Assembly: GCF_036507355.1 (NCBI RefSeq)
Contig: NZ_AP027877.1
Source of the DNA: Escherichia coli
Lineage (GTDB): Bacteria > Pseudomonadota > Gammaproteobacteria > Enterobacterales > Enterobacteriaceae
Length of the DNA stretch: 64,000 nt
Direction: 5' to 3' (one strand)
The position numbers were made by a program, and so were the translations under genes. Below, piece by piece: positions 30,094-62,715 of this stretch. Positions within the stretch are counted from its first letter, which is position 1. Each line of letters starts with the position of its first letter. Under the pieces are notes generated by a model. That model was not told the DNA's origin. It ran no database searches and saw only the letters and a list, made by a program, of their open reading frames with translations.

Positions 30094-30124
30094 GCCCTCT
30101 TCGTGGGAAGAGGGCTATTTTGTC
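30094..30124. terminator. Bidirectional rho-independent terminator between ggt and yrhB
   Basis: Hairpin gccctcttc-gtgg-gaagagggc flanked by T/A tracts. Confidence 0.75.
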
Positions 30125-30407
30125 AGGGCAAGCCGAAGGTAGCCTTTTTTATTTCGTAATCCTGTAGATATTCTTCCAGCGGCTTTGCCGTTCCCAGAGA
30201 ATGAATTTCACCACTGTCTTTATCAATAATAAAAGGTGCGTTACCAGCTAAGCGCGCGGCCTCATCTCCAGTTTCGAGAAATTCTCGTGCTTCGAAACAG
30301 AAATACCAGCCCTGGCTAAAGCGTCCATGTAGAGTAATGACGACCGGGAGATCTGCATCATCAAGGTAATGGTTCGCTTTCGCGAATGCGTCGTGATAAG
30401 TAATTAT
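30123..30407 (-). CDS. yrhB: YrhB homolog (93 codons read from sequence); expected initiator position is ATA, not ATG
   Basis: Minus-strand translation ITYHDAFAKANHYLDDADLPVVITLHGRFSQGWYFCFEAREFLETGDEAARLAGNAPFIIDKDSGEIHSLGTAKPLEEYLQDYEIKKATFGLP; not in the ORF track because there is no ATG/GTG/TTG before the upstream in-frame stop. Confidence 0.55.
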   Translation of the reverse strand: MITYHDAFAKANHYLDDADLPVVITLHGRFSQGWYFCFEAREFLETGDEAARLAGNAPFIIDKDSGEIHSLGTAKPLEEYLQDYEIKKATFGLP

Positions 30408-30604
30408 AATTATAATAAATATTATTGTTGAGTGTTATATTATTATTCCTGTGTGATACATTGAGCAAAGGCGCGTTCATCTTCGTCAAAGATATTATTA
30501 AATGCTGGTTTTGAAAAAAGTTCATCGGATAAGATATAGTCACGAAATAAGTATCTGCTAATATTTTGTGATTTTTTTCAGAACGTCGAACGGGATTTTC
30601 TTAT

Positions 30605-30769
30605 TTAAGATATCAGAATCTTATGATTCGGGTAAAATTCTAAATAAATCAACATGTCACTAAAATCATCATAGCCATTAGCTATTTCGGCTAAAATAGA
30701 GACTACATGTCTTCGGTCCATCTCACTTAAGGAGTGTAGTTCCGTTGTAAGTTTTTCCATAGCTTGCAT
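30605..30769 (-). CDS. Possible small ORF (54 aa)
   Basis: ATG..TAA ORF read by hand: MQAMEKLTTELHSLSEMDRRHVVSILAEIANGYDDFSDMLIYLEFYPNHKILIS; AT-rich; below the track length cutoff. Confidence 0.25.
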   Translation of the reverse strand: MQAMEKLTTELHSLSEMDRRHVVSILAEIANGYDDFSDMLIYLEFYPNHKILIS

Positions 30770-30854
30770 TGCTAAATTTCGAACAAGGAATTTTCTGGTG
30801 GTAATCTCTAAAAAGATGGTATGGTTTACAATGATTTTTGTTTCCTTTTGATTA

Positions 30855-31349
30855 TTATGAACAACTGTCCATGATTTCGTTTAAGAATGAAGAGAAATCA
30901 CTAAACGAACTGAATATATTTTCTGTGCCAATATTATCTCTAATTTCAAAAAAGTTACTTTTAATGTCATAAGTAAATATTGAAATGCTATCATCCCCGA
31001 TCACTAACCGTTCTTGTAGATCAGGGTTTATGAAATCATCATTATTTCTATAAAATTCATTTACGGCAAAAAGGTTTTTAACTGAAGGTTCTGGAATCGA
31101 GAGGCTAAATAATCGTAATCCATTAACTTCGAATCCATCCATTGCTCTTAAAAAAGTAAGATAATCAGGTTGATTCTTAAAAAGAATACTAACTTCATTA
31201 CATAACTTCTCCAGGCAATTAGTTGAATTAGAATTAAATTCTATTTGGATTATACTTTCAATAAATGATTCCTTGAGCGGTGCTTCAAATGGATAGTCTA
31301 AATCATTCATCATTTTTATTAATTTGTTTATTTGGGTTTTAGTCATCAT
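30855..31349 (-). CDS. Putative immunity protein (YrhA-like), translationally coupled to the upstream Hcp-HNH gene (164 aa)
   Basis: Start ATG overlaps the stop of the HNH reading frame (ATGA); AT-rich, acidic small protein typical of immunity genes. Confidence 0.6.
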   Translation of the reverse strand: MMTKTQINKLIKMMNDLDYPFEAPLKESFIESIIQIEFNSNSTNCLEKLCNEVSILFKNQPDYLTFLRAMDGFEVNGLRLFSLSIPEPSVKNLFAVNEFYRNNDDFINPDLQERLVIGDDSISIFTYDIKSNFFEIRDNIGTENIFSSFSDFSSFLNEIMDSCS

Positions 31350-32524
31350 TTTGTGGGTTCCATAATATTTTTCATGGGAGGATAAATTGAGCCAGATGGA
31401 ATGGCCCAGGGAGTGATTTTACTTTCACCTACTAATATTCCCTTAGCTATTCGTGATTGCATGTTAGTAAAAACTTTATGATATGGTTCGTTTTCGATTA
31501 ATACTAAATTTTCGAAATCATTAGTACCACCATCATCTAGAGATAGTTTATGGTGAACATTATAATTTAGAGGAACATAGCCCTTTCTCATTCTTAAAAG
31601 GTCTTCGGCGTTGAATCTTCCAGATGCTTCGGAGGTTTTTGCAAGTTTGATAAGAAAATTTTTTCTTACAGTTTTGTTAAACTCCTTTCGTAAGTTAGCT
31701 AAGTCTTTTGAAGGTCTCTTAATGTATATTATTTATATTATGTCTATGCCATCAAGAAGTTTTTGTTGACCTCTAAGTTTGCCTAAGTAACTATTTATTT
31801 CTGTATATGTATCAACTCTAGAACGCTTTGTTAAAAGAATAGATGCTGTTGCTATCGCTATGCCCGCTGTTTTTTCATTTAGTATTTGATCATAGCCTTT
31901 GATTGCATCTCCACCCAGTTTTTCCGCAGTATCTCTGAATCCTTCAATGTTCCCATTGTATACGCCACCAGCAGCAAGTAGCCTGCCAACAGCTTTGCTG
32001 TTTAACGTTTTGAAACGATTATTTGTTTGGTTTTTTGAATTTGGTAAAAACAAACGGTTATAATTTTCAGGGAGTGCCAAATAGCTGAACTCGGTATTTG
32101 CGATAAGATGTTGACAGAGGATAAATTCATAACTAACAGTTATTGTTTCTGTATCCAGTTGATTTTCAATGATCTGATGATGAATAGCCGATAAAAAAGC
32201 GCCTCTTAGTTGTATATAATAATACTTTTCCCATCTGCCAAATCTATTGATTCTATAAAAGTCAAATCCCATAAATAATTGCTCATTATTGTTAATGGAA
32301 TTAATAAGTAATGGAGTGCTTTTATCAATTAATTTACAAAATGTTATACCCTGTAACTGTGAACCAAGCCCCGTATTAGTAATGCTATTTGCGAGTGAGA
32401 ATGTAAATATTTCATTCTCATGCCCGCTCTGCCAGCGATTACCTATAGATTCAGTAGTCCCACAACCTGCGGAGATGCTTCCTTGTTGTTCTCCCGTTAC
32501 TGTCAGGTAAACAATATTACTCAT
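31346..32524 (-). pseudogene. yhhZ: Hcp-domain protein with C-terminal HNH nuclease (YhhZ-like Hcp-ET toxin), interrupted by an in-frame TAA
   Basis: ORFs 31733..32524 (263 aa, Hcp-like N-terminus) and 31346..31591 (HNH motif NYNVHHKLSLDDGGTNDFENLVLIENEPYH) are in the same frame, separated by one TAA at 31733..31735; the full span is 393 codons. Confidence 0.7.
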
Positions 32525-32760
32525 CCCTGAAAAGTCCTTTTATGGCATGCTATTTTATCAATGGCACTATTATGCTTGTTAATTGTTATTTATTTACTCC
32601 AGGAAATTGTAGGCGTATATATTAAAAAATAAAATATTACACTTTAGGAAGTAATTATGAGGTAAATCTCAATATATTTATTGGGAAAATAAATATATTA
32701 AAGGAAGGTATGCCGATTTTGAATGACACCCTTTTTCCATCTCAGAAAAAGGGCACTATC

Positions 32761-33249
32761 TTACTTCACCCGCGCCATATAATACGCATCGACATATTCA
32801 CCATTACGCAATGCGTACTTCTTACCAGTCCCTTCAATTTCAAAGCCGTATTTTTTATAGACCTTAATTGCCGGGGCGTTATCGACAAACACGGTTAGTT
32901 CAATGCGATCTACCCGCAACCAGTTGTCGCACATTTCAATCATCTCTCGCATAAGGGCGCTGGCGACGCCGCGATTCTTCCAACGGGAGTCGACACAGAT
33001 ACCAAAATCGGCAACATGACTGCGGCGTGGGCGCTGTTGCACGTCAATGGTGAGATGACCCACGACGTCTCCATCAATACAGGCGACGAGTTGCTTGATG
33101 CCGGGACGATCGGCGAGTCGCTCCTGCCACATATGATCGGAAGGATGAGGCACCTGTAGTGTGTTGTAATACACCTCCGGCTGGGCGTGAATCTGCCTGA
33201 TGGCCTCGTAATCGCGCGTTTCAGCATGGCGTATCACTATCTCACTCAT
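32761..33249 (-). CDS. yhhY: GNAT N-acetyltransferase YhhY (162 aa)
   Basis: ORF 32761..33327 trimmed to MSEIVIRHAETRDYEAIRQIHA. Confidence 0.9.
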   Translation of the reverse strand: MSEIVIRHAETRDYEAIRQIHAQPEVYYNTLQVPHPSDHMWQERLADRPGIKQLVACIDGDVVGHLTIDVQQRPRRSHVADFGICVDSRWKNRGVASALMREMIEMCDNWLRVDRIELTVFVDNAPAIKVYKKYGFEIEGTGKKYALRNGEYVDAYYMARVK

Positions 33250-33370: not shown

Positions 33371-33466
33371 GCGATCAGGAAGACCCTCGCGGAGAACCTG
33401 AAAGCACGACATTGCTCACATTGCTTCCAGTATTACTTAGCCAGCCGGGTGCTGGCTTTTTTTTTT
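33371..33466 (+). ncRNA. ryhB: RyhB iron-responsive small RNA
   Basis: gcgatcaggaagaccctcgcggagaacctgaaagcacgacattgctcacattgcttccag...gccagccgggtgctggc plus T-tract terminator, matching my memory of RyhB; in the yhhY-yhhX spacer. Confidence 0.9.
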
Positions 33467-37326: not shown

Positions 37327-38667
37327 GTGACTACATTAACGCTTGTTTTAACAGCAGTAGGGTCTGTTTTACTGCTGCTGTTTTTAGTCATGAAGGCGCG
37401 TATGCACGCTTTCCTGGCTTTGATGGTGGTGTCCATGGGGGCTGGCCTTTTTTCTGGTATGCCGCTCGATAAAATCGCAGCGACGATGGAAAAAGGGATG
37501 GGAGGCACCCTCGGCTTCCTGGCGGTGGTTGTCGCCCTGGGAGCCATGTTTGGCAAGATCTTACATGAAACCGGCGCAGTCGATCAGATTGCCGTCAAAA
37601 TGCTCAAATCCTTCGGTCACAGCCGCGCGCATTATGCCATCGGCCTTGCGGGGCTGGTCTGTGCGCTACCGCTGTTCTTTGAAGTGGCGATTGTTCTGCT
37701 GATTAGCGTTGCTTTCTCAATGGCGCGCCACACCGGTACGAACCTGGTGAAGCTGGTAATCCCATTATTCGCAGGCGTGGCGGCAGCGGCGGCGTTCCTG
37801 GTGCCAGGGCCAGCGCCAATGCTGCTGGCATCGCAGATGAACGCCGATTTTGGCTGGATGATCCTGATTGGCCTGTGTGCGGCAATTCCGGGAATGATTA
37901 TTGCCGGGCCGCTGTGGGGTAACTTCATCAGCCGTTACGTTGAGCTGCATATTCCTGACGACATCAGCGAGCCGCATCTCGGCGAAGGCAAAATGCCGTC
38001 CTTCGGATTCAGCCTGTCGCTGATCCTGCTGCCGCTGGTGCTGGTGGGGCTGAAAACCATTGCCGCGCGTTTTGTGCCGGAAGGCTCTACCGCTTACGAA
38101 TGGTTCGAGTTTATTGGTCATCCGTTTACCGCGATTCTGGTTGCTTGTCTGGTAGCGATTTATGGCCTGGCAATGCGTCAGGGCATGCCAAAAGACAAAG
38201 TGATGGAGATTTGCGGTCACGCGCTGCAACCGGCGGGGATCATTCTGCTGGTGATTGGTGCGGGCGGCGTGTTCAAACAGGTGCTGGTTGACTCTGGCGT
38301 AGGTCCGGCACTGGGCGAAGCGTTAACCGGCATGGGCCTGCCGATTGCTATCACCTGCTTCGTGCTGGCCGCTGCAGTGCGCATCATTCAGGGGTCTGCC
38401 ACCGTTGCCTGTTTAACGGCGGTGGGGCTGGTGATGCCGGTCATTGAACAACTGAACTATTCCGGTGCGCAAATGGCGGCGCTGTCGATTTGTATCGCCG
38501 GTGGTTCAATTGTTGTCAGCCACGTTAACGATGCCGGTTTCTGGTTGTTCGGTAAATTTACCGGCGCGACCGAAGCCGAAACGCTGAAAACCTGGACCAT
38601 GATGGAAACCATCCTCGGCACTGTCGGTGCCATCGTTGGGATGATTGCGTTCCAGCTGTTGAGTTAA
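37327..38667 (+). CDS. gntU: Low-affinity gluconate transporter GntU (446 aa)
   Basis: 446-aa GntP-family permease. Confidence 0.95.
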   Translation: MTTLTLVLTAVGSVLLLLFLVMKARMHAFLALMVVSMGAGLFSGMPLDKIAATMEKGMGGTLGFLAVVVALGAMFGKILHETGAVDQIAVKMLKSFGHSRAHYAIGLAGLVCALPLFFEVAIVLLISVAFSMARHTGTNLVKLVIPLFAGVAAAAAFLVPGPAPMLLASQMNADFGWMILIGLCAAIPGMIIAGPLWGNFISRYVELHIPDDISEPHLGEGKMPSFGFSLSLILLPLVLVGLKTIAARFVPEGSTAYEWFEFIGHPFTAILVACLVAIYGLAMRQGMPKDKVMEICGHALQPAGIILLVIGAGGVFKQVLVDSGVGPALGEALTGMGLPIAITCFVLAAAVRIIQGSATVACLTAVGLVMPVIEQLNYSGAQMAALSICIAGGSIVVSHVNDAGFWLFGKFTGATEAETLKTWTMMETILGTVGAIVGMIAFQLLS

Positions 38668-38723
38668 GTTTGTTCGCCCGGTAGTTGTGACGCTACCGGG
38701 CTCTTTTCGAAAAACTCTCCTCG

Positions 38724-39317
38724 TTACCCCTTCATCCACATTCGAATGCCGTCGAGGAACATCTGGGTTGCCATCATCACCAGAATCAATCCCATCAGGC
38801 GTTCAAGTGCGTTCACCCCTTTCTCGCCCAGCAGACGTAAAAATAGCGAAGACTGTAGCAGGATGACAAAGGTGCCGCCCCAGGCCAGCAGCAGAGCAAT
38901 CACCAGATGTCCCATCTGATTCGGGTACTGATGAGACAACAACATCAGCGTGGCGAGAATAGTTGGCCCGGCGACCAGCGGAATTGCCAGCGGCACGATA
39001 AATGGCTCTTCACCTGCCGGAAGCCCGCTGCTATTTCCTGAAGCGCTGGGGAAAATCATCTTAATGGCAATTAGAAACAGAATGATGCCGCCAGAAATGG
39101 AGACGGTTTCTGCTCGTAGGCTGAGAAATGCCAGAATTTTCTCACCCGCAAACAGGAACACCAGCATCACCAGGAGAGCAATAAGCAACTCTCGCACCAT
39201 GATTGCCCGCCGTCTTTTCGGTTCAGTATGTTTCAGTACGGACATGAAAATAGGTAGGTTTCCGAGCGGATCCATAATCAGGATCAATAAAACTGCTGCA
39301 GAAATGATTTCATTCAT
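38724..39317 (-). CDS. yhgN: MarC-family membrane protein YhgN (197 aa)
   Basis: 197-aa multi-TM ORF. Confidence 0.9.
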   Translation of the reverse strand: MNEIISAAVLLILIMDPLGNLPIFMSVLKHTEPKRRRAIMVRELLIALLVMLVFLFAGEKILAFLSLRAETVSISGGIILFLIAIKMIFPSASGNSSGLPAGEEPFIVPLAIPLVAGPTILATLMLLSHQYPNQMGHLVIALLLAWGGTFVILLQSSLFLRLLGEKGVNALERLMGLILVMMATQMFLDGIRMWMKG

Positions 39318-50369: not shown

Positions 50370-51887
50370 ATGGAAAGAATAATGCAAAACAGAAAATGGA
50401 TTTTGTCCTCGCTGGTAATGACTTTTTTCGGCATCCCCATACTGACGCAATTTTTGGCGGCGGTTGTTGCTATGCTGGGTGTCGGACTTGCCGGTATTAT
50501 TGAAGTTTGTAATATCCTTATCACGCCAACAATTTACCTTCTGCTCAACATTTTTATGCTGGCGCTGGGCGCATTAATGCTATTTTTCTCGGGGCGAGTA
50601 TGGGCAGGCGATAGTGCACCAGAAAAAAGAGAAATAGCCGTCTGGCGGCAATGCTTTTTTCTCTTACCCGCGCTATTAACCCTGGTTGGCTGGATAATCA
50701 CGCTACATCTGGCAGATTATCAATTTCGCCAGATGGGAGCTGGTTGGTTGGCAAACCTTATGCTTCCCTGGTTGGGCGTTTTTTTAGTCTCATTAGTGGG
50801 TGGTGAGTACTGGTGGATGGTCATTATTCCCGTTGGGGCGCATATCAGTTTTTCGCTGGGATACGCCTGGCCGACCAGATATCCTTTATCCGGCACGTCC
50901 GGACTACGTTGCCGTAACTTACTCCTGTTTCTACTTCTCTTACTTGGTATTGTCGCCGGGTATCAGGCCCATTTATATAAGCAGCAAAATCCTGGTGTCG
51001 GTGTACGCGAAAATATTGATATCTGGGCCTGGCGACCCGATAAACTCAATAATCGACTGACGCCGCTGCGTGGCAAACCGCAAATTCAGTTTAGGCAAAA
51101 CTGGCCGCGAATCGATGGCGCCACGGCTGCGTACCCAATTTATGCTTCTGCATTTTATGCATTAAGCGTAATACCAGAGGATTTTCACGTTTGGGATTAT
51201 CTGGAAAACTCTCGTACGCCAGAAGCATATAACAAAATCGTTAAGGGCGATGCTGATATTATTTTCGTGGCGCAACCTTCTGGTGGGCAAAAAAAACGTG
51301 CAAAGGAATCTGGTGTCACTTTGCTGTACACCCCCTTTGCCCGTGAAGCATTCGTTTTCATCGTCAATGCGGATAATCCGGTTAATTCCCTGACTGAACA
51401 ACAGGTGCGTGACATTTTCAGTGGTGCAATTACCAATTGGCGTACTGTTGGCGGTAACGATCAGGAGATCCAGACCTGGCAGCGCCCGGAAGACTCTGGC
51501 AGCCAGACAGTGATGCAATCACAGGTCATGAAAAATGTCCGCATGATCTCGCCGCAGGAAACGGAAGTGGCAAGCGTGATGGAGGGAATGATTAAAGTCG
51601 TTGCCGAATACCGTAATACAAACAACGCAATAGGCTATACCTTCCGCTATTACGCGACGCAAATGAATGCTGATAAAAATATAAAATTGCTAGCGATTAA
51701 CGATATTACACCGACGGCGGAAAACATTCGCAACGGCAAATATGCGTACATCGTCGATGCATTTATGGTAACGAGGGAAAATACGACGTCAGAGACACAA
51801 AAATTGGTGGAATGGTTTTTAACGCCGCAGGGGCAGAGTTTGGTGGAAGATGTGGGATATGTGCCGATGTATCCAACAATGGAATAA
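50370..51887 (+). CDS. Polytopic membrane domain fused to a PstS-like (PBP_like_2) substrate-binding domain (505 aa)
   Basis: About 200 aa with ~6 hydrophobic helices, then GATAAYPIYASAFYAL...SGSQTVM...IGYTFRYYA, which resembles PstS motifs. Confidence 0.7.
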   Translation: MERIMQNRKWILSSLVMTFFGIPILTQFLAAVVAMLGVGLAGIIEVCNILITPTIYLLLNIFMLALGALMLFFSGRVWAGDSAPEKREIAVWRQCFFLLPALLTLVGWIITLHLADYQFRQMGAGWLANLMLPWLGVFLVSLVGGEYWWMVIIPVGAHISFSLGYAWPTRYPLSGTSGLRCRNLLLFLLLLLGIVAGYQAHLYKQQNPGVGVRENIDIWAWRPDKLNNRLTPLRGKPQIQFRQNWPRIDGATAAYPIYASAFYALSVIPEDFHVWDYLENSRTPEAYNKIVKGDADIIFVAQPSGGQKKRAKESGVTLLYTPFAREAFVFIVNADNPVNSLTEQQVRDIFSGAITNWRTVGGNDQEIQTWQRPEDSGSQTVMQSQVMKNVRMISPQETEVASVMEGMIKVVAEYRNTNNAIGYTFRYYATQMNADKNIKLLAINDITPTAENIRNGKYAYIVDAFMVTRENTTSETQKLVEWFLTPQGQSLVEDVGYVPMYPTME

Positions 51888-52905
51888 CGCTCGAGAGAAA
51901 GGAATCAGCGAGACGAATAAATTCACCGGTGTTTTACTATTAGGCACGGCGTTACTGGCGGGATGTGTCGACCGGGAAGGGTACTATAACAGCGTCAGGG
52001 AAGAAGAGAGCCATGGACTGACGTCTCTGCGGGGGCAACCTGCATTACGTTACAGCGATGATTGGTCAAGATGGCCGAGAGTGTACGGCGCTACAGCCTT
52101 ATACCCGCTGTATGCCTCCGCGTATTATAAATTAGTACCCGAGCCAAAAGATAAGGATCGAACCTCGCTGGCCTGGCAGGCGTATGGTTTGCAGCAAACC
52201 CGAACAGCTGAAGCCTACGATAGTCTGATTAAAGGTTCCGCGACGGTTATTTTTGTTGCACAACCGTCGGAAGGACAGAAAAAACGTGCAGAAGAAGCGG
52301 GTGTTAAACTGAAATATACCGCTTTCGCCCGCGAAGCCTTTGTCTTTATCGTTGATATTAATAACCCGGTAAATTCTCTCTCTGAGCACCAGGTTAAAGA
52401 TATTTTTAGCGGCAAAACTAGCCGCTGGAATAAAGTAGGTGGTAGTGACGAACATATAAAAGTCTGGCAGCGCCCTGAAGATTCTGGAAGCCAAACGATT
52501 ATGAAGGGGTTGGTTATGCAAGACACCCCAATGCTGCCAGCTAAAAAATCCACTGTGATTGATCTTATGGGCGGTTTAATTACTGAAGTTGCCGACTATC
52601 AAAACACGCCATCTTCCATTGGGTACACCTTCCACTATTACGTCACTCGTATGAATGACAATATGCTCAAAATGCGCAAGCAGATTAAACTTTTGGCTAT
52701 AAATGGCGTTGCGCCTACCGAGGAAAATATCCGCAACGGCACTTATCCATACATTGTGGATGCCTATATGGTGACGCGTGAAAATCCCACGCCGGAAACG
52801 CAGAAATTTGTTGACTGGTTTATAAGTCAGCAGGGGCAACAGTTGGTAGAGGATGTGGGGTATGTGCCGCTGTATGAAGCATCCCCCGAATCATCAGGAC
52901 AATAA
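51850..52905 (+). CDS. PstS-like substrate-binding lipoprotein, paralog of the upstream gene's C-terminal domain (351 aa; start uncertain)
   Basis: Lipobox LLAGC; domain collinear with the 505-aa protein; start overlaps the upstream gene by 38 nt. Confidence 0.7.
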   Translation: MWDMCRCIQQWNNAREKGISETNKFTGVLLLGTALLAGCVDREGYYNSVREEESHGLTSLRGQPALRYSDDWSRWPRVYGATALYPLYASAYYKLVPEPKDKDRTSLAWQAYGLQQTRTAEAYDSLIKGSATVIFVAQPSEGQKKRAEEAGVKLKYTAFAREAFVFIVDINNPVNSLSEHQVKDIFSGKTSRWNKVGGSDEHIKVWQRPEDSGSQTIMKGLVMQDTPMLPAKKSTVIDLMGGLITEVADYQNTPSSIGYTFHYYVTRMNDNMLKMRKQIKLLAINGVAPTEENIRNGTYPYIVDAYMVTRENPTPETQKFVDWFISQQGQQLVEDVGYVPLYEASPESSGQ

Positions 52906-53442
52906 TGATGAATATAATCAGACTTTATATTTATCCGTTATTTCTCGGCTTTGTTATTGTGCCGTTGTTGGTGTGGCCGATGGTGGTTGCGCTGGCTGCT
53001 TGTATTATCACGCTGAGTTTTCTGGGGGAAATGCTGTTCTCAATCCCGCTCATGATCAGGCGTATTTCACTTCTGCAATTACAACTTTGGTTATCGGCTG
53101 AATATGCGCTTTTCTTCTGTGTAATGTGTTGCGTTGGTTGGCAATTTACTCGTAGAACTCAATCTGAATTGAAAAGCAGGCTCCATTGTTGGTTGGTATT
53201 CGCACCGGTCTATTTATGGTTGATCCTCTGGAATATCATTTTTTACATCGCGCCAGCGAAAATTGCGTTGCTGGAAAGTATCCGCAATTTCTTTCTGCTT
53301 GTTGTCTGGCTACCCCTGAATTTTTCGCCATTTTGGCCTCAGCCGTGGACGGATTTTATCGGTCCAATAAGCGCACAGTGAGGTAGCCTGAGTTTAACGG
53401 ACACTCCTTCCTGAAATAGAATGGCATCAGAAGGAGCTAATA

Positions 53443-53745
53443 ATGAGCAGAAAAACCCAACGTTACTCTAAAGAGTTCAAAGCCGAAGCTGTCAGAACGG
53501 TTCTTGAAAATCAACTTTCGATCAGTGAAGGCGCTTCCCGATTATCTCTTCCTGAAGGCACTTTAGGACAATGGGTTACCGCCGCCAGAAAAGGGCTCGG
53601 TACTCCTGGTTCCCGCACGGTGGCTGAACTGGAATCTGAAATTCTGCAACTGCGTAAGGCGTTAAATGAAGCTCGCCTTGAGCGAGATATATTAAAAAAA
53701 GCAACAGCGTATTTTGCACAGGAGTCGCTGAAAAATACGCGTTAA
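53443..53745 (+). CDS. IS3-family transposase OrfA (HTH, 100 aa)
   Basis: MSRKTQRYSKEFKAEAVRTV...; typical IS3 OrfA with leucine zipper. Confidence 0.85.
   Translation: MSRKTQRYSKEFKAEAVRTVLENQLSISEGASRLSLPEGTLGQWVTAARKGLGTPGSRTVAELESEILQLRKALNEARLERDILKKATAYFAQESLKNTR
53694..53701 (+). promoter_or_regulatory. Probable -1 programmed frameshift site (A6G) for the OrfAB transposase
   Basis: aaaaaaag near the 3-prime end of orfA, upstream of the orfB frame. Confidence 0.55.
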
Positions 53746-53780
53746 TCGAACAATGGCGACAACAATTTCCCATTGAAGCG

Positions 53781-54599
53781 ATGTGTCAGGTATTTGGTGT
53801 ATCCAGGAGCGGTTATTACAACTGGGTACAGCATGAACCCTCAGACAGAAAACAAAGTGATGAGCGGCTAAAACTGGAGATTAAGGTGGCACATATCCGC
53901 ACTCGCGAAACATATGGAACCCGGCGGCTCCAGACGGAGCTGGCAGAGAATGGCATCATCGTTGGTCGTGACCGACTGGCACGTCTTCGTAAGGAGCTAA
54001 GGCTACGCTGTAAGCAGAAACGCAAGTTCAGAGCGACTACGAACTCGAACCACAATCTGCCAGTTGCGCCAAATCTGCTGAACCAGACGTTCGCTCCTAC
54101 AGCACCAAATCAGGTCTGGGTGGCGGACCTGACGTATGTTGCCACACAGGAGGGATGGTTGTACCTCGCTGGCATCAAAGATGTTTATACGTGCGAAATT
54201 GTCGGCTACGCCATGGGAGAGCGCATGACAAAAGAGCTGACAGGTAAAGCCCTGTTTATGGCGCTCAGGAGCCAGCGCCCACCTGCCGGGCTAATCCACC
54301 ACTCTGATCGAGGTTCACAGTACTGCGCATACGATTACCGGGTCATACAGGAGCAGTTTGGTCTGAAAACATCAATGTCGCGTAAAGGTAACTGTTACGA
54401 CAACGCTCCGATGGAAAGCTTCTGGGGAACGCTGAAAAATGAGAGCCTGAGCCACTATCGTTTTAATAACCGGGATGAAGCCATCTCAGTAATACGGGAA
54501 TACATTGAGATTTTCTACAATCGTCAGCGTCGTCACTCTCGTCTGGGGAATATCTCCCCGGCAGCCTTCAGGGAAAAATATCATCAGATGGCTGCTTAA
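53781..54599 (+). CDS. IS3-family transposase OrfB (DDE integrase core); the true N-terminus is probably fused to OrfA by frameshifting
   Basis: 272-aa ORF with an rve-type integrase core. Confidence 0.85.
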   Translation: MCQVFGVSRSGYYNWVQHEPSDRKQSDERLKLEIKVAHIRTRETYGTRRLQTELAENGIIVGRDRLARLRKELRLRCKQKRKFRATTNSNHNLPVAPNLLNQTFAPTAPNQVWVADLTYVATQEGWLYLAGIKDVYTCEIVGYAMGERMTKELTGKALFMALRSQRPPAGLIHHSDRGSQYCAYDYRVIQEQFGLKTSMSRKGNCYDNAPMESFWGTLKNESLSHYRFNNRDEAISVIREYIEIFYNRQRRHSRLGNISPAAFREKYHQMAA

Positions 54600-54827
54600 A
54601 AAAAGAACAAATGGTAGTGTCCGCTATTGCCAGTACACCTCACAGCTTGGTTTTGCGTTGGGATATTATTGCCAGTGGCGCAGCAAAAATAGATGCCAGA
54701 TACGGAAGTGGAGTGAGTGGGGAACGTGCTTAAGTTTTGTTACGTTGGGTATGATGGCGTGGGCTTTGCGGTAATTCCCTGAATCAAAAAGTAGGTCAGA
54801 TTGTTGACAACGTGGCACTTTGTTCAT

Positions 54828-54930
54828 GCCTGATGCGGCGTGAATGCCTTCTCAGGCCTACAAAATCATGCAAATTCAATATATTGCATAAACCACGTAG
54901 GCCTGATAAGCGTAGCGCATCAGGCAATTT
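54828..54930. repeat. REP pair downstream of glpD
   Basis: gcctgatgcggcgtgaatgccttctcaggccta and gtaggcctgataagcgtagcgcatcaggca. Confidence 0.7.
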
Positions 54931-61653: not shown

Positions 61654-62673
<1,020 letters not shown>

Positions 62674-62715
62674 TATAAAGATGTAAGCCGGATCCAATGC
62701 ATTATCCGGCTAAAC

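Follow-up and report, generated by a model that had tools for sequence, protein, structure and literature searches.

The insertion sequence IS600, originally reported from Shigella sonnei, belongs to the IS3 group of the IS3 family, whose members transpose by a copy-out/paste-in route via a circular intermediate and typically leave target duplications of 3 bp. Disruption of accessory genes by IS600 is routine in Escherichia coli and Shigella. By megablast, an IS600 match that is at least partial is present in 3,486 of 5,426 complete genomes, with a median of two and a maximum of 43 places per E. coli genome. Here we describe a single copy, the only one within a 64-kb stretch of E. coli DNA (hereafter the window), which interrupts a gene in the interval between glgP and glpD.

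The initial annotation had proposed an IS600-like element of the IS3 family, 1264 bp long, at positions 53379..54642 on the plus strand. It turns out to be IS600 itself: all 1264 bases match at 100% identity copies that RefSeq labels 'IS3-like element IS600 family transposase', and a single nucleotide (position 873) separates the window copy from two copies in O26 strains (L025 and L026). Read from the sequence, the termini are 53379 TGAGG... and ...CCTCA 54642. The left terminal inverted repeat (IRL, 53379..53405, plus strand) starts with TG, the right one (IRR, 54616..54642, plus strand) ends with CA, and the two ends correspond as TGAGGT... and ...ACCTCA. Ungapped alignment of the IRL with the reverse-complemented right end matches 19 of the first 27 positions, in the stretches TGAGGT, CTG, TA and CGGACACT, so that the imperfect terminal repeats noted earlier hold on exact alignment. 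A putative promoter-like sequence, TTAACG-17-TAGAAT, lies within the left end. Of the traits by which IS600 and the IS3 family are recognised, full-length near-identity, TG...CA ends, the orfA/orfB architecture and a 3-bp duplication were found. Compared with IS600, the window copy has the same 1264 bp, nucleotide sequence, ends, 385-aa DDE transposase and duplication length; the element itself shows no differences, and its only particular feature is the insertion site, which it has in common with a few draft assemblies.

Both transposase frames are present on the plus strand. The first, orfA (53443..53745), encodes 100 aa with an HTH_Tnp_1 domain (Pfam PF01527, E=1.5e-20), and orfB (53781..54599) encodes the integrase core (Pfam rve, E=3e-26). 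An A6G slippery site had been reported in orfA, which needs correction: the run is A7G (TTA AAA AAA G, positions 53694..53701, plus strand; TTA AAA AAA GCA in the orfA frame), which gives the zero-frame heptamer A_AAA_AAA followed by G. The expectation of OrfAB frameshifting from this run fares better, as the product predicted after a -1 shift would comprise 385 aa and matches the NCBIfam model NF033516 transpos_IS3 (E=4e-124; 414 bits, cut-off 160). The predicted OrfAB contains the DDE residues D229, D289 and E325, and the motifs WVAD, HSDRG and NAPME are all present. Its amino acid sequence is identical to the product of two O26/EHEC copies, in which RefSeq annotates a 'programmed frameshift' over the same CDS span, and a hairpin is predicted 3' of the slippery site (z=-2.1). 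IS600 is complete in the window, its transposase OrfAB is intact, and the element is apparently functional.

Exact alignment confirms that the element is flanked by the direct repeat CAG that had been noted before, with a left copy at 53376..53378, which forms codon Q158 of the target gene, and a right copy at 54643..54645, exactly where one draft contig (L029) begins; an empty site (L001) contains CAG only once. The chance expectation for a bare 3-bp repeat is 1 in 64, and excision was taken as the decisive test. The 5' part of the target gene (52905..53381, plus strand) consists of 158 codons and a stop that the element provides, its first three bases (TGA, 53379-81) terminating a 158-aa frame in the ORF list just as the initial annotation had read it. 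The orphaned 3' part (54646..54774, plus strand) holds 42 codons and a stop and is conserved across Escherichia. In-silico excision, joining 52905..53378 to 54646..54774, restores an ORF of 603 nt and 200 aa. The proposed length of about 200 aa therefore stands, but the gene does not simply continue past the element: the insertion adds 1267 nt, a number not divisible by 3, and only excision brings the downstream remnant back into frame. At least 15 complete E. coli chromosomes carry an annotated CDS that matches the restored ORF at 100% from end to end. It encodes the 200-aa RefSeq 'hypothetical protein' WP_021578030.1 and is placed after two 'PstS family' genes in the glgP-glpD interval. With the intact allele of E. 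coli EC1515, for example, the excised gene is 100% identical in DNA. That allele lacks the IS, and the second gene of its cluster starts with ATG, whereas the window has ACG.

The IS600 copy in L026 is flanked by a different 3-bp duplication, CCT, and when the sequences beside two further IS600 copies were compared, they had no target sequence in common; our search for literature on IS600 target sites returned nothing useful. Some O26 copies match 13-16 nt into the flank, a candidate shared target that direct comparison showed to be chance.

The restored protein matches no family in Pfam, NCBIfam or PADLOC. Only Escherichia has homologues of it, namely in E. coli, E. albertii, E. marmotae and the cryptic clades, and their full-length forms have 196-200 aa. 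When a profile was searched against 1.84 billion representative proteins, 41 matches were obtained, nearly all of them fragments of this same Escherichia family; the only distant relative among them was one metagenome protein with 37% identity, which keeps the motif spanning the insertion point. Joined to the upstream part, the flank beyond IS600 completes a protein conserved at 196-200 aa in E. coli, E. albertii and E. marmotae. This conservation includes the 42 C-terminal residues (LGFALGYYCQW...CLSFVTLGMMAWALR), which are retained among alleles that are about 80% identical overall. Because of this C-terminal conservation and of pairwise dN/dS values of 0.22-0.41, the gene is real and under moderate purifying selection. 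Shorter natural alleles of 182 aa, in which the last ~20 residues are missing, are common (P0075, 503 member sequences). Kyte-Doolittle means over 19 residues reach at least 1.6 around residues 10-42, 68-70, 102-115 and 129, and this hydropathy profile suggests several membrane segments, most of which the 158-aa truncated product would keep. An AlphaFold2 model from a 13-sequence alignment is all-helical, but too poor for use (pLDDT 46, pTM 0.28).

The two upstream genes lie on the plus strand. PstS-like gene 1 (50370..51887) combines an N-terminal membrane domain with a PBP_like_2 domain (Pfam PF12849, E=2e-29, residues 247-485), and PstS-like gene 2 (51850..52905) encodes a lipoprotein-type protein that also matches PF12849. 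Only this general Pfam domain passes its cut-off in the two genes; against the PstS model TIGR02136 they score 121 and 119 bits, below the cut-off of 206.6. 'PstS-like' is thus meant as a resemblance for both, and phosphate binding is putative. In gene 2 the canonical start codon at 51913 has changed from ATG to ACG, both in the window and in one of the draft assemblies that carry the insertion (L004).

In order to assess paralogy between the target protein and these neighbours, Smith-Waterman alignments with shuffle controls (1000 shuffles) were used. The 200-aa protein of the window aligns with a domain of a 375-aa protein of E. albertii at z = 7.0, a score that 0 of 1000 shuffles reached, and with PstS-like protein 1 at only z = 2.8 (15 of 1000 shuffles). 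The distant relative P0129 scores z = 21.6 with the 375-aa domain and z = 8.1 with PstS-like protein 1 (0 of 1000 in each case). These alignments indicate that the target family is a collinear, free-standing paralogue of the N-terminal membrane domains of PstS-like protein 1 and of the E. albertii 375-aa protein. The common motif reads P-x-[SG]-[AS]-[QH]-x-x-F-x-L-G-Y-[YA] and is followed by a basic stretch and then by a hydrophobic segment. It is the best-conserved motif of the domain, and IS600 cuts it in the middle (GPISAQ | LGFALGYY).

The interrupted gene belongs to a cluster that is eroding piecemeal across Escherichia. In E. albertii the cluster comprises seven genes, in which two PstS-like genes are followed by genes of 375, 236, 262 and 258 aa and then by one of 199 aa; the four extra genes gave no meaningful match in Pfam, NCBIfam or PADLOC. 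Relative to this arrangement the window lacks 3.48 kb, with a breakpoint near 52868, so that PstS-like gene 2 has a deletion fusion as its 3' end and takes its final codons (...EASPESSGQ) from the end of the 258-aa gene. The three-gene cluster seen here is, on this comparison, a deletion remnant of the seven-gene cluster. The initial annotation was right that the third gene of a PstS-like cluster is truncated, but that cluster is itself what remains of a larger one. Another decay product occupies the same glgP-glpD locus in E. coli K-12: yzgL (b3427), on which nothing useful was found in the literature, consists of codons 1-77 of PstS-like gene 1 fused to the out-of-frame tail of the 200-aa gene. 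The equivalent of window positions 50600-54714 has been deleted in K-12, whereas the window keeps three genes, one of them hit by the IS. Frameshift, nonsense and short alleles of the 200-aa gene occur in other isolates. Among them is a separate E. coli lineage (L012-L017) in which codon 158 itself has changed from CAG to TAG (Q158*) and which carries no IS; this allele was found in 0 of 5,426 complete genomes.

Likewise, no genome among the 5,426 complete ones of E. coli in RefSeq has the left junction. About 24 public draft or metagenome contigs are on record with exactly the 158-aa truncated product, which marks the insertion because its stop codon exists only through the IS. In three independent assemblies (L004, L009 and L010), IS600 bases follow directly after CAG with no mismatch. 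The contig of L004 extends 75 nt into the IS and shows one mismatch across 4474 nt upstream, that of L010 contains 26 nt of IS600 after CAG, and in L009 a single contig covers the target gene together with the entire IS600. Since at least three independent public assemblies carry a junction that is missing from all 5,426 complete genomes, the insertion is young, lineage-restricted and confined to one small lineage. The earlier description of the insertion as clean and probably recent agrees with this, given the perfect duplication, the identity of the IS to other copies, the match of the restored gene to empty-site alleles and the missing junction in complete genomes. Over 12 kb, the nearest complete genome shares only about 99.0% identity with the window. 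Collinearity with E. coli extends from yhhS to malT, every housekeeping ORF in the 64 kb is full-length, and IS600 is the sole IS-sized interruption relative to E. coli EC1515. The full-length ORFs and the lack of other interruptions speak against a Shigella source, and an E. coli strain is the more likely one.

That the insertion might be an artefact of assembly has to be considered, as many E. coli genomes hold several copies of IS600 and repeats are often collapsed or misplaced by assemblers. A perfect 3-bp duplication and the exact reconstitution of the empty site would hardly result from such an error, nor would an identical left junction in three independent assemblies, one of which bridges the gene and the whole IS on one contig; we regard an artefact as next to inconceivable. 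The position within the gene raises a different question, namely whether codon 158 has been hit repeatedly and independently, by IS600, by the CAG to TAG change and perhaps by additional insertions no more than 5 nt away, either because truncation is selected or because a local hot spot exists. We consider such recurrence unlikely. If it were true, either the C-terminal motif and helix would be removed by selection from a free-standing 'anchor' domain, a paralogue of the one in the neighbouring PstS-like protein, or a local hot spot would exist.

In its adaptive form, this idea holds that selection favours losing the C-terminal 42 residues or the whole protein, IS600 being one of several convergent routes. 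It could draw on the IS-free Q158* allele of a separate lineage at the very same codon, on the frameshift alleles in other backgrounds and on contigs of several allelic backgrounds that stop no more than 5 nt away from it. Yet both truncated alleles are rare, each being missing from all 5,426 complete genomes, and three Escherichia species keep the full-length form, at dN/dS values below 0.5. Given about ten known truncations in 200 codons, one of them would fall beside the IS site in an estimated 15% or so of cases, and the wholesale deletion of the locus in K-12 is equally compatible with relaxed selection. Adaptive truncation therefore seems very unlikely. A preference of IS600, or of insertion sequences generally, for this target would instead explain the location, and draft and metagenome contigs that are 96.8-99.9% identical upstream do end at GCGCA, GCGCAC (as in GCA_031229145.1), GCGCACA, CAG or CAGC (as in GCA_014787025.1), the 'CAGC' ends being incompatible with IS600 at the CAG site. 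Most of these ends, however, can be explained by assembler trimming and by forks in mixed samples, caused by the C/T polymorphism of Q158* or by the coexistence of IS-bearing and empty alleles. IS600 bases themselves are seen only in L004, L009 and L010, at one identical position, and the flanks of the two other copies point to no shared target. Moreover, the gene lies in two separated places in at most 2 of the 3,471 complete genomes that carry it. We hence consider it unlikely that target preference, as opposed to chance, placed the element here.

We therefore favour, with high confidence, an account in which IS600 recently entered codon 158/159 of one gene of a decaying cluster, truncating its product with probable loss of function and likely without selective consequence. 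According to this account, a complete IS600 would have transposed into the 200-codon gene, the last of the accessory cluster between glgP and glpD, and generated the CAG duplication in doing so; the route of transposition is taken from what is known of the IS3 family. The product loses its last 42 residues, because the IS supplies TGA directly after Q158, and with them the second half of the signature motif (GPISAQ|LGFALGYYCQW), the basic stretch and the terminal hydrophobic segment. Loss of function of the interrupted gene is most likely, because IS600 sits in the middle of a motif common to the paralogous domains. Gene inactivation, as originally stated, agrees with the split motif and the 42 missing residues but is an inference, as the part ahead of the stop still encodes 79% of the protein. 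The extreme C-terminus may be dispensable, because 182-aa alleles without the last ~20 residues are common. The insertion itself was most likely selectively neutral, and would represent one more lesion in a dispensable cluster that was already eroding: this allele type lacks four genes, this lineage has lost the start codon of gene 2, and in K-12 nearly the whole cluster is gone.

Altogether, the insertion is already known in kind and adds no new mechanism to what has been described for IS600. Since none of the 5,426 complete RefSeq genomes of E. coli contains the junction, it is of modest use for marking the lineage, and the insertion provides a further data point for the piecemeal loss of the glgP-glpD cluster in Escherichia. 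More interesting than the IS is the uncharacterised cluster that it has entered, in which two PstS-like binding proteins stand together with orphans that carry a novel membrane domain.

The 'PstS-like cluster' of the window (50370-52905 and 54646-54774) is, by sequence comparison, the remnant of a larger cluster. At the same locus in E. albertii (L022, 1-5600) there are seven genes, in which two PstS-like binding proteins are followed by genes for proteins of 375, 236, 262 and 258 aa and then by a 199-aa gene. No family was matched by any of the 375-, 236-, 262- and 258-aa proteins, of which the last two are paralogous to each other at 38% identity. A membrane domain of roughly 190 aa is present three times in the cluster, once joined to a PBP domain, once joined to an unknown domain, and once free-standing. 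Relative to E. albertii, the window carries a 3.48-kb deletion, whose breakpoint lies at about 52868, within a short TGTATGA-like microhomology; at its 3' end, PstS-like gene 2 reads …YEASPESSGQ, a sequence that comes from the terminal part of the 258-aa gene.

The start of PstS-like gene 2 is also altered. Its annotated start codon at 51913-51915 is ACG, as it is in L004, a public assembly that carries the same IS600 insertion; in E. coli EC1515, which has the intact 200-aa gene, and in E. albertii this codon is ATG. The sole remaining start is an in-frame ATG upstream, at 51850, the use of which would place 21 extra residues before the lipoprotein signal peptide.

Several further features were observed elsewhere in the window. 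The RyhB sRNA (33400-33464; Rfam, 83 bits) is in its usual place between yhhX and yhhY. A variable island at 30121-32761, the counterpart of which is absent from EC1515, encodes a protein of 263 aa whose N-terminal domain is Hcp (T6SS). Behind it lies an ORF of 164 aa, for which there was no family match; together the two could form an orphan Hcp-effector/immunity pair of the yhhZ type. Missing from the window, but present in EC1515, are a 3.5-kb RecQ-family helicase/DprA island adjoining gntU (at 38667-38724) and a GNAT/DUF1778 toxin-antitoxin pair adjoining malT (at 62662-62712). At the right end of IS600, a predicted 89-codon ORF with a TTG start (54505-54774) runs out of the element into the orphaned 3' remnant of the interrupted 200-aa gene, with which it is in frame. 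The REP-like palindromic stretch that separates this gene from the 3' end of glpD contains an Rfam match to the ES036 (CssrF) sRNA (54862-54904; 43.6 bits, cut-off 37.6).

A natural nonsense allele of the 200-aa gene, Q158* (CAG to TAG), is found in E. coli contigs L012-L017 (e.g., GCA_027673655.1) and in 0 of 5,426 complete genomes; it is equivalent to window position 53376 and affects the same codon as the IS600 target duplication. In K-12 MG1655, the locus holds yzgL (L028, 3563724-3564005). This is no independent gene but a deletion fusion, in which ~77 codons from the start of PstS-like gene 1 are joined to the 3' tail of the 200-aa gene, read out of frame.
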